Both the position numbers and the translations under genes were made by a program. A stretch of 32,000 bases of DNA, from contig NZ_JACJRU010000042.1 of the NCBI RefSeq assembly GCF_014697425.1, positions 36,693 to 68,692 on the forward strand, given 5' to 3'. Source of the DNA: Nostoc sp. FACHB-110 (GTDB lineage: Bacteria > Cyanobacteriota > Cyanobacteriia > Cyanobacteriales > Nostocaceae). The notes under the pieces are model-generated. The model had not been told where the DNA came from, did not search any database, and was given only the letters and a program-made list of their open reading frames with translations. This document shows positions 29,867 to 31,905 of this stretch, piece by piece; the stretch's first letter is position 1, and each line of letters begins with the position of its first letter.

Positions 29867-30322
29867 ATGGAACCAATTACCGTAGGTGCGATCGCGCTTT
29901 TAGCTTTAATAGGTAATAAATTTGTTGATTGGTCAACAGAAAAAGCTTTGGATGCAATTTATGACCAAGCCAAGCAAGTAATTCATGATAAATCACCCGC
30001 AACAGCCGCAGCGTTAGAAACCGCAGCCACACAAGCAGCTTTACCGCCAGGAGAGCGAGAATATATTGGTGAAGCTGTATTAGTAGAAGAAGTCAAAAAA
30101 GCAGCAGAGGCATATCCAGAAATTCAAGAAGCCGTCGAAGCATTAGGTAATCAAGTTAACACGGCTGCACAAGCTAACCCTGAACTGAAGAAGGCTCTTG
30201 CCGAGTTAACCGCAGCTATTAAAGAGCAAAGTTCTACAACCTTGGTAAAACCACAAGGTATTATCACTACGGGTGGTGAGACTAAAGTCAAGGGTTCCAC
30301 ATTCAACTTTGGCAGTAAATGA
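29867..30322 (+). CDS. small helical protein with hydrophobic N-terminal helix and C-terminal 22-aa motif shared with the downstream NLR (Bell/HeLo-like effector candidate)
   Basis: MEPITVGAIALLALIGNKF..., an Ala/Glu-rich body, and the C-terminus QGIITTGGETKVKGSTFNFGSK. ATGA overlap with the next gene. Confidence 0.8.
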   Translation: MEPITVGAIALLALIGNKFVDWSTEKALDAIYDQAKQVIHDKSPATAAALETAATQAALPPGEREYIGEAVLVEEVKKAAEAYPEIQEAVEALGNQVNTAAQANPELKKALAELTAAIKEQSSTTLVKPQGIITTGGETKVKGSTFNFGSK

Positions 30323-31905
30323 CCGATAACAACCTGCAAGGAATAATCACTCAGGGTGGAAAGGTTATTGTTAAAGATTCAACATTTAATTTTGGGTCAT
30401 CACAACAGACTTCTCCACCGAATATTCCCAATAATTTAATTCGCAAAGGCGCAGTTAACTTTGTTGGGCGAGAAAATGAACTCGCCAACATCCATCACCA
30501 ATTGCAGCAGTCGGGTAAAGTGGCAATTTCGGCGGTGGCTGGGATGGGTGGTGTCGGTAAAACGGAATTAGCAACCCAGTATGCACTAAAACATGAAGCT
30601 GATTATCCTGGCGGTATCTGCTGGCTGAATGGGAGAGAATCAGAGTTAGCCGCTAGTATTGTGCAATTTTATGGGTTGTACATCGCTCAAGAAATACTAC
30701 AAGAATTAGGCGGAAAACTGCTGAACCCCCAAGAACAAGCGCGGTGGTGTTGGCAACATTGGCAACCATCTGAGGGTTTGGTGTTAGTAGTTTTCGATGA
30801 TGTCACTAATTTAGAGCATCTGCAAGAAATACAGCCGCCAGCGAACCGCTTTCGCGTACTCATCACCACCCGTTTACGCAACCTCAACCCCAATTTTGTA
30901 CGGGAAATTTCTTTAGATGTACTCCCAGAAAATAAAGCGTTAGAACTGCTAACAGCTTTTGTAGGTGAAAAGCGAATACAACGGGAAGAAACAGCCGCTA
31001 AACAACTATGTCAATGGCTGGGATATTTACCCTTGGGGTTGGAATTAGTCGGACAGTATTTAGCCGAAGATCCAGATTTATCTTTAGCAGAAATGCTTGA
31101 AAGGCTGGAGGTGCAACGACTAGAGGATGAAGCCCTGGAACGGAGACAGGCAACTCTGAGTGCAGCACAGCTAGGAGTAAAAGCCGCCTTTGAATTAAGC
31201 TGGCGAGAACTTGGTGAAAAAACCCAGCTTGTAGGTGCGTTATTGAGTTTGTTTGCCCCTGATGTCATTCCTTGGCAATTGGTAGAATCTACCAGTGAAT
31301 TGTTAAATTGGGCAGAGGCAGATGTTAACGAAGCCAAAAAGCAACTTTACAAGCGTCATCTCATTCAAAGATTAGAAGATAAAAACGCTTGCTATCAAAT
31401 TCATCCGTTAATTCGGGAGTTTCTCAAAGGGAAATTAGGGAAAATTAATACTTTTACAGGCACAGAGGAGTTAGGGGTTGAGTTCAAACAAGTTTTTGTA
31501 GCGGCAATAATAGCAAAAGTAAAAGAAATTCCTCAAGCTATCACTTTAGAATTTATCGCCTCAGTGCAGGATACTATTCCTCATCTTCAAGAAGTTGCTG
31601 AAAATTTAATTGATGTGGTGAGGGATGAAGATTTAATCTGGGTGTTTGTTGGTTTGGGTAAATTTTATGAAGGGCAAGGTTTGTATGTGTTAGCAGAACC
31701 TTGGTATGTGCAGTGTTTATCGGCAATAAAAACCCGTTTGGGAGAAGAACATCCTTACGTTGCCACCAGCCTGAACAACTTGGCATTACTCTATAATTCC
31801 CAAGGAAGATACAGCGAAGCCGAACCCTTGTTGCTCCAAGCTTTAGAAATGAGAAAACGCCTGCTGGGAGAAGAACATCCCGACGTTGCCCTTATACCAA
31901 TTTAA
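30319..31905 (+). CDS. NB-ARC (STAND) NTPase with N-terminal short motif and C-terminal TPR repeats; probably 3'-truncated
   Basis: N-terminus LQGIITQGGKVIVKDSTFNFGSS. P-loop GMGGVGKT (30541-30564), LVLVVFDDV, RVLITTR, GYLPLGLEL, IHPL. TPR_12-like EEHPYVATSLNNLALLYNSQGRYSEAEPLLLQALEMRKRLLGEEHPDVA, then off-consensus LIPI-stop. Confidence 0.9.
   Translation: MTDNNLQGIITQGGKVIVKDSTFNFGSSQQTSPPNIPNNLIRKGAVNFVGRENELANIHHQLQQSGKVAISAVAGMGGVGKTELATQYALKHEADYPGGICWLNGRESELAASIVQFYGLYIAQEILQELGGKLLNPQEQARWCWQHWQPSEGLVLVVFDDVTNLEHLQEIQPPANRFRVLITTRLRNLNPNFVREISLDVLPENKALELLTAFVGEKRIQREETAAKQLCQWLGYLPLGLELVGQYLAEDPDLSLAEMLERLEVQRLEDEALERRQATLSAAQLGVKAAFELSWRELGEKTQLVGALLSLFAPDVIPWQLVESTSELLNWAEADVNEAKKQLYKRHLIQRLEDKNACYQIHPLIREFLKGKLGKINTFTGTEELGVEFKQVFVAAIIAKVKEIPQAITLEFIASVQDTIPHLQEVAENLIDVVRDEDLIWVFVGLGKFYEGQGLYVLAEPWYVQCLSAIKTRLGEEHPYVATSLNNLALLYNSQGRYSEAEPLLLQALEMRKRLLGEEHPDVALIPI

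Follow-up and report, generated by a model that had tools for sequence, protein, structure and literature searches.

A BASS7 Bell/NLR Gene Pair in Nostoc sp. FACHB-110 Whose Two Motif Copies Are Alike as Peptides and Diverged as DNA

Why should two adjacent genes carry, at the end of one and near the start of the other, a 22-residue segment that is largely the same as a peptide and about as different at synonymous sites as independent codon choice would make it? The question is raised by a 32,000-nucleotide (nt) stretch of DNA from Nostoc sp. FACHB-110 (contig NZ_JACJRU010000042.1, positions 36,693–68,692, forward strand), here called the window, in which a small effector gene overlaps the gene for an NLR-type receptor. 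A first-pass annotation of this DNA proposed that the two segments are kept similar by selection, as for functional templating or recognition, and are neither a recent duplication nor an assembly artefact. We find that the feature is a BASS7 Bell/NLR amyloid-signalling pair, a known system and not a new one, and that the two segments are very probably its two halves, acting by templating. The features on which the argument turns are as follows (ORF, open reading frame; AF2, AlphaFold2).

29867–30322, + strand: Bell-like effector gene, 151 residues, a helical domain and then a C-terminal motif (ORF, homologs, AF2 model, ortholog in the published Bell set)
30254–30319, + strand: effector-side BASS7 motif, QGIITTGGETKVKGSTFNFGSK (translation, homology to a catalogued pair)
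30319–30322, + strand: ATGA overlap, the receptor start lying over the effector stop, with the receptor in the −1 frame (same −4 overlap in 17 related loci)
30319–31905, + strand: NLR-type receptor ORF, 528 residues as it stands (ORF, domains, orthologs of 656–1042 residues)
30337–30402, + strand: receptor-side BASS7 motif, QGIITQGGKVIVKDSTFNFGSS (translation, homology to a catalogued pair)

Results and Discussion

Two Motif Copies with Saturated Synonymous Sites

The effector-side copy forms the C-terminus of the effector and the receptor-side copy comprises receptor residues 7–28; their coding segments are direct repeats with 17 nt between them, and no third copy is present in any of the six reading frames of the window. 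Translation of both stretches bears out the first-pass count of 16 identical residues in 22, and the pair scores 78 in local BLOSUM62 alignment, against 20.8 ± 4.4 (maximum 46) for 5000 shuffles (z = 13). Ten of the 16 shared residues are encoded by different codons, as the annotation had also stated (all the codon examples it listed are correct), where independent draws from the codon usage of the window would give 9.17. Synonymous sites between the copies are therefore saturated, and the peptide is conserved. Nucleotide identity is 44/66, divided among codon positions 1, 2, and 3 as 17, 16, and 11 of 22. The dN/dS-style comparison over orthologous loci that the annotation had suggested was run copy against copy by the Nei-Gojobori method in the window and six orthologous loci, all seven of which combine synonymous saturation with a conserved protein: the proportion of synonymous differences (pS) is 0.70 in the window and 0.81–0.94 in the six orthologous loci, and that of nonsynonymous differences (pN) is 0.14–0.26.

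Orthology to a Catalogued BASS7 Pair

BASS pairs join a short Bell protein to an adjacent NLR that shares with it a motif of ~25 residues, at the C-terminus of the effector and the N-terminus of the NLR; filamentous members of the Actinobacteria and Cyanobacteria have them, and of the pairs 91% are collinear and 42% overlap (Dyrka et al., 2020; bioRxiv 10.1101/2020.01.06.895854). The window pair has the same organization. Its effector fits the Bell description (~120–150 residues, all-helical, a hydrophobic first helix, an acidic residue at position 2 or 3), the adjacent collinear gene encodes NB-ARC plus TPR (tetratricopeptide repeat), one of the arrangements of an NLR (NB-ARC or NACHT with TPR or WD repeats), and the shared segment is of the expected length (~20–25 residues). 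The window motif, assigned to BASS7 by direct comparison with the sequences of Table S2 of Dyrka et al. (2020) and not by a profile, gives a gap-free alignment with 28 other BASS7 pairs. As expected for a system of multicellular or filamentous prokaryotes, the close homologs all come from Nostocales (Nostoc, Aulosira, Rhizonema, Gloeotrichia, and Mojavia). What the window receptor lacks is a complete C-terminal array of sensor repeats.

The closest catalogued relative is OUL32057.1/OUL32058.1 of Nostoc sp. 106C (our locus L001/P0002), listed in Table S2 as bass_07/nlr_15 with the motifs QGVITTGGQTTVKGSTFNFGSK and LQGIITQGGKVIVQDSTFNFGSS (10.1101/2020.01.06.895854). Its effector, a member of the Bell set in that table, likewise has 151 residues and is 83% identical to that of the window; the ATGA overlap is the same, the NB-ARC/TPR receptor matches at 436/524 residues, and the motif variant is shared (QGVITTGGQTTVKGSTFNFGSK / QGIITQGGKVIVQDSTFNFGSS), with three substitutions on the Bell side and one on the NLR side. 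The two differ in that the 106C receptor runs to 790 residues, whereas that of the window breaks off at residue ~524, at an IS630-like element. On these sequence comparisons the window locus is an ortholog of a catalogued BASS7 pair and hence a new member of the family.

The commoner pairs with the motif WQGINIKGG... (L002–L029; e.g., Calothrix elsteri PAX60321.1/PAX60320.1) are likewise filed as bass_07 in Table S2 (10.1101/2020.01.06.895854). They share family and architecture with the window, with Bell/NB-ARC DNA up to ~90% identical, but differ from it at ~9 of 22 motif positions, the changes being concerted between the two sides (I4N, T5I, V12I, S15P, and others), and probably represent a specificity type distinct from the QGIITTGG type of the window.

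Two other motif classes were considered and rejected. The HET-s-related amyloid motif (HRAM) requires two effector pseudorepeats, and the effector here has one copy, none of the frames of the window containing a third; the RIP homotypic interaction motif (RHIM), or BASS3, requires an I/V-Q-I/V-G tetrad, whereas the window motif reads (P/L)-Q-G-I-I and its ortholog is filed as bass_07, not bass_03. The fungal HRAM pair HET-S/NWD2 of Podospora anserina nevertheless resembles the window in that an adjacent effector and NLR share an amyloid motif of ~21 residues at the same ends, and in HET-S, as in the Bell effector, a helical domain of the pore-forming kind has a hydrophobic helix at its N-terminus; it differs in being eukaryotic, in the two pseudorepeats of HET-S as against one here, and in motifs with no detectable sequence homology. 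The bacterial Bab/Agp pair (BASS11, E. coli ECOR25; bioRxiv 10.1101/2024.11.07.622273) also sets beside each other a small effector of Bell type, its motif at the C-terminus, and a sensor with the motif at the N-terminus, but its sensor is TPR-GreA/B-C-PIN and not NB-ARC, its 'Babybell' domain is shorter (~80 residues), and its motif belongs to another family.

Substitutions Mirrored between Partners

The annotation had also suggested asking whether a substitution in either copy has its counterpart in the other copy of the same genome. From 77 fetched loci with effector relatives, one per species (L001–L077), 28 non-identical BASS7 pairs in a gap-free alignment formed the sample. Where two loci differ on both sides, 559 cases are mirrored and 17 crossed, these being counts of locus-pair-by-position cases in which the underlying evolutionary events are not independent. 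Motif identity within pairs is 14.4/22, versus 12.2/22 when the effector of one locus is set against the receptor of another (partner permutation, P = 5e-5). Position 17 of the motif reads N/N in 16 pairs, P/P in 9, S/S in 2, and N/P in a single pair; position 6 reads N/N in 25 and I/I in 2, and position 7 reads I/I in 13, T/T in 3, and F/F in 3. With the saturated synonymous sites, this mirroring supports the first-pass case for selection on templating or recognition, and against a recent duplication or an artefact. At least 29 species retain the motif pair, and among 71 loci those without an in-frame UGA (42) have a downstream gene with a matching motif in about 39 cases.

Divergence between the two specificity types is concentrated at the gene junction. 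Compared with L002 and L007, the window is 85–95% identical in DNA on the flanks and only 65–72% identical over 30227–30406, whereas against L001, which has the same motif variant, this junction is 82–90% identical. Against loci of the other motif type (L002–L005, L007) the nonsynonymous rate (dN) is 0.33–0.46 for the motif and 0.05–0.12 for the Bell domain, at similar synonymous rates (dS); against L001 the motif dN is 0.02–0.06. For the receptor-side copy in the latter comparison dN is 0.02 and dS 0.68, rates by which this copy is judged to be under purifying selection.

The window is thus a clean natural case of the halves of a BASS pair held together by protein-level selection, because the synonymous sites are saturated, the substitutions are mirrored, and the divergence hotspot does not extend beyond the junction. 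BASS7 is a small family, and the occurrence of the QGIITTGG and WQGINIKGG types on near-identical genes makes them usable for tests of seeding barriers.

Across L001–L077 one conserved Bell-like domain is followed by many unrelated C-terminal tails, among them QGIITTGG..., WQGINIKGG..., NLAQGIE.SINIQNQTVNL, IQNIEKAINAAQTQTIDQRGSTFNI, KLAEKIGQVVMPGGTG..., and KIAETIGKIG.... In two-gene designs each tail type is paired with its own partner motif. Since one domain bears many unrelated, partner-matched tails, the motif behaves, as far as the alignments tell, as a swappable module. A separate observation concerns L072, where a 211-residue ORF (3819–4454) fuses a Bell-type N-terminal helix (MEPLTTGAIALLLFCGNKFIDW) straight to TPR-like sequence; the gene is either a chimera or the product of a rearrangement, or else what is left of an all-in-one design.

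The Effector Protein

One further feature marks the effector as Bell-like.

29867–29914, + strand: N-terminal hydrophobic helix, MEPITVGAIALLALIG, with an acidic residue at position 2 ('MEPIS'-type Bell/HeLo signature; sequence, alignment)

In the alignment of its homologs, 26 in number and all from Nostocales, M1, P3, T5, G7, A8, and I9 are almost invariant. Pfam and NCBIfam, neither of which has a Bell model, gave no family match to the effector, and a weak PADLOC match to '2TM effector' (E = 1e-3) was not relied on. An AF2 model built on a 27-sequence alignment, of which the secondary structure alone was used, shows six helices up to residue 122 followed by a low-confidence tail (predicted local distance difference test, pLDDT, 63 overall). 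A scan for promoters and terminators returned sites no more often than in shuffled sequence.

A Templating Mechanism and Its Alternatives

In BASS1 and BASS3, the motif on the NLR side converts that on the Bell side to a prion-like state, and cross-β fibrils are formed. Bab/Agp of E. coli (BASS11) protects against phage by abortive infection: amyloid templating by the sensor switches on the Bell-type effector, in whose fold four helices cup a hydrophobic helix 1 that is presumed to attack the membrane once freed (bioRxiv 10.1101/2024.11.07.622273). By analogy with these relatives, BASS7 motifs would form amyloid, the Bell domain would have cell-death activity, and the pair would act in defence.

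This analysis has shown how the two genes are arranged, which motif they carry, that the locus is orthologous to a catalogued pair, that the copies have diverged to saturation at synonymous sites, and that their substitutions are mirrored; these observations can be placed in the following scheme. The Bell domain, a putative membrane-targeting cell-death effector, would be a helical bundle that hides the N-terminal hydrophobic helix, and the receptor gene would be translationally coupled to that of the effector. A ligand would trigger oligomerization of the receptor, gathering its N-terminal motifs, which would adopt a cross-β fold; this fold would template the matching motif on free effector, and the Bell domain, thereby released or activated, would kill the cell in an abortive defence. 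Because templating needs sequence compatibility, the copies would be kept alike at the protein level and would change together while their DNA drifted to saturation. We hold it highly probable that the two stretches are halves of a BASS7 pair that works in this way.

Several points weigh against this assessment. The mirrored and crossed counts do not represent independent events, and in the window, where the copies are 17 nt apart, one recombination tract could swap both; the mirroring persists, however, where the copies are 86–250 nt apart (e.g., L014, L017, L050). The motif region of the AF2 model falls below 50 pLDDT and contains only two short strands (132–135 and 138–141, pLDDT ~40). A Foldseek search of the PDB with this model (pLDDT 63) returned nothing at E ≤ 0.001, an Rx-CC match at E = 4.2 being noise, and sequence and profile searches of the PDB gave chance coiled-coil and TPR matches and no significant Bell or HeLo structure. 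Experimental tests in the searchable literature concern BASS1, BASS3, and BASS11, and none was found there for BASS7. Finally, the truncation of the receptor by an insertion sequence makes present-day function in this genome doubtful.

The motif pair might instead be a docking or recognition tag that binds in an ordinary, non-amyloid manner, for example by β-strand augmentation, with the co-variation reflecting compatibility of the interface. Any interface would show co-variation and protein-level conservation, the AF2 tail has no confident fold, and the amyloid tests found in the literature are of other BASS families. Against this, heterodimer interfaces normally select complementarity, whereas the partners here keep the same residue (N/N, P/P, S/S, I/I, T/T), as self-templating stacks require; from the alignments, identity rather than complementarity at the covarying positions appears to fit in-register stacking better than an ordinary interface. 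The segment also matches published BASS and HET-s-type motifs in its length (~22 residues), its richness in G, N, Q, I, V, and T, and its Gly-separated short strands, and relatives of the same gene architecture form amyloid. We regard a docking tag as unlikely.

Less likely still is that the motif serves the effector alone, for instance in self-assembly in the membrane, and that the receptor copy is incidental or regulatory, for example a capping inhibitor. Consistent with such a role, 29 related loci have a receptor without its own copy, and most Bell C-termini in the literature are without an identified partner (346 pairs from 1816 C-termini; Dyrka et al., 2020; bioRxiv 10.1101/2020.01.06.895854). 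The loci without a receptor copy, however, are exactly those in which an in-frame UGA and a conserved hairpin join the effector to the receptor, a pattern that points to readthrough as the means by which the receptor obtains its motif; the receptor-side copy, by the low dN and high dS given above for the comparison with L001, is under purifying selection; and in tested systems the NLR-side motif activates and does not inhibit.

That the repeat is a functionless relic of tandem DNA duplication, of gene conversion between the gene ends, or of misassembly has in its favour that the copies are direct repeats 17 nt apart, but can be dismissed: third-position identity is 11/22, the 10 differing codons compare with 9.2 expected, pS is 0.70–0.94 over seven loci, the pair is kept in at least 29 species, including loci with copies 86–250 nt apart, and a neutral leftover would lose protein similarity long before synonymous saturation, the synonymous-site data ruling out in particular that the copies were duplicated recently, are still subject to gene conversion, or arose in assembly.

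An Insertion Sequence in the Receptor Gene

The receptor gene contains the domains of an NLR up to the point at which it is interrupted.

30472–31125, + strand: NB-ARC domain, receptor residues 52–269, P-loop GMGGVGKTE (Pfam PF00931, E = 1.9e-16)
31636–31884, + strand: remaining TPR repeats, receptor residues 440–522, array cut short (Pfam TPR_12 / TPR_10; TPR_12 at E = 5.9e-23)
31891–32000, − strand: end of an IS630-like insertion sequence (IS), with the transposase C-terminus ...IQEIFDQLTFEQVISVSSYNFILEALFYAASY (110 nt shared with four other flanks)

Homology of the receptor to the TPR arrays of its orthologs ends at 31890, in mid-repeat. The segment 31891–32000 recurs at 94–96% identity, from the same start base, in four contigs (L078–L081) with unrelated flanks, three of which come from one assembly (JAESFO01); next to the copy in L081, an adjoining ORF matches Pfam DDE_3 (E = 1e-7), an IS630-type remnant. 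Because the homology stops at 31890 and the sequence beyond it recurs elsewhere with transposase coding, the sensor array is read as interrupted by an IS. That both ORFs are otherwise intact suggests that the insertion is recent, and since it cuts the sensor array, the system in this genome is probably disabled.

The receptor genes of the orthologs contain arrays in which a 126-nt TPR repeat recurs almost unchanged. In L002, L006, L007, and L017 (about 5900–7300) the units are exactly 126 nt apart, with 36–44-nt matches that are 92–100% identical. Highly internally conserved repeats have been linked in fungal NLRs to rapid diversification of the sensor.

Sister Loci with an In-Frame UGA

In 29 of the related loci the downstream protein has no motif, and within-locus scores of 15–33 are those of the background. 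The first-pass annotation had named orthologs with one copy absent as evidence against its proposal. Such loci do occur, but there the effector and receptor reading frames are continuous except for a single UGA, which a conserved hairpin follows; this arrangement fits a need of the receptor for the motif, and on this sequence evidence the single-copy loci would strengthen the view that the receptor must carry it. The loci are as follows.

L015, L021, L027, L030, L031, L033, L035, L037, L039, L041, L043, L045–L049: in-frame UGA, stop near 4400–4500 in most
L053–L056, L059, L061, L062, L064–L066, L068, L070, L071: in-frame UGA, stop near 4400–4500 in most
L040, L063, L069, and weakly L034: further loci with an in-frame UGA

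Loci of this type come from ~30 species, 29 of them Nostocales and other cyanobacteria and one a metagenome-assembled genome of Chloroflexaceae; examples are Nostoc calcicola FACHB-3891 (L035), Anabaena azotica FACHB-119 (L048), and Scytonema tolypothrichoides (L056). The effector ORF of the single-motif loci ends in TGA in 29/29, with C as the next base in 26/29, mostly as UGA-CUN, and the two-gene loci with spacing mostly use TAA stops. Beyond the UGA the frame is open for 165 to >1300 codons, into an NB-ARC or other NTPase domain, and begins with a linker, L-Q-S-P-E-R-E-R-V-K-L-N-P-P-x-N-I-P...F-V-G-R, homologous to that of the window receptor. Most of these loci have no in-frame ATG, GTG, or TTG for 17–55 codons past the stop. 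Reinitiation at a non-canonical codon is also unlikely, the next codon being CUA, CUG, CUC, CCN, AUA, or GAA in all but one locus.

Conservation after the stop extends to the nucleotides. Over 45 nt past the UGA, third codon positions are conserved at 0.77, compared with 0.73 for first and 0.79 for second positions, the consensus being TGA CTA CAG TCG CCC GAA CGG GAA CGG GTA AAG TTA AAT CCC CCA. RNAalifold gives a 5-bp hairpin with an 8-nt loop, starting 8 nt past the UGA, with compensatory changes in 3/5 pairs and ~98% of cells paired; with a candidate pseudoknot (loop GGGA with a downstream UCCC, in a CCCC run) 93.5% of cells are paired, as against ≤53% in slid controls, and 0/500 shuffles reach the observed values. 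A covariance model of the post-UGA element matches these junctions alone in 625 kb, on which ground a dispersed repeat was rejected; it has no match in the window or the two-copy loci, and Rfam holds no family that matches the element. For the two window ORFs themselves, fusion by a −1 frameshift was rejected, there being no slippery heptamer at the ATGA junction and no conserved structure found there by a covariance model.

The case for programmed UGA readthrough in a bacterial chromosomal gene, as one of two interchangeable ways to tag effector and receptor, stands to our mind evenly balanced. Readthrough is the most parsimonious account of the single-motif loci. It would yield abundant free effector together with small amounts of an effector-tag-receptor fusion to nucleate that effector; both products would then have the same tag by construction, and the co-evolution seen in the window would therefore not be needed. 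BASS7-type motifs are present in both designs (e.g., L030, L035, L041). A junction-spanning protein query of 5.8 billion proteins returned 31 clusters, all of them effectors of 74–146 residues (27 with 145–146), among which no protein crosses the UGA and no sense-codon fusion occurs. The predicted signals resemble those of viruses (murine leukaemia virus gag-pol, UAG with a pseudoknot; alphaviruses, UGA-C with a 3′ stem) in their leaky stop context (UGA C), ~8-nt spacer, and conserved structured RNA, and in the short abundant and rare extended products that they would give. The viral signals differ in belonging to eukaryotic viruses and not to bacterial chromosomal genes of a defence type, and readthrough in the sister loci is a prediction from sequence. 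Within the searchable literature, neither the BASS papers nor a full-text search mentions readthrough. If confirmed, these loci would be among the rare instances of programmed readthrough in the cellular genes of bacteria and would show a new way to wire an NLR to its effector; the sister architecture is a more consequential lead than the window itself.

Genes and Repeats Upstream of the Pair

Between the effector gene and the nuclease gene described below, the window contains a 21-nt unit (AAGGCTCATCCGCGAGTGTCA) repeated 14 times in tandem, with an 84-nt super-period (29351–29647). ORFs called across this array on either strand, with GSSASVK... and DEPLTL... repeats, match no family and are probably not genes. 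Just upstream lie a secreted-type staphylococcal-nuclease homolog (28768–29340) and a 1023-residue protein with TPR and CHAT (caspase-like) domains (24364–27435), in which no copy of the BASS7 motif was found. Since CHAT domains have been linked in the literature to BASS motifs and NLRs, the CHAT, nuclease, and Bell/NLR genes may together form a small conflict or defence neighbourhood.

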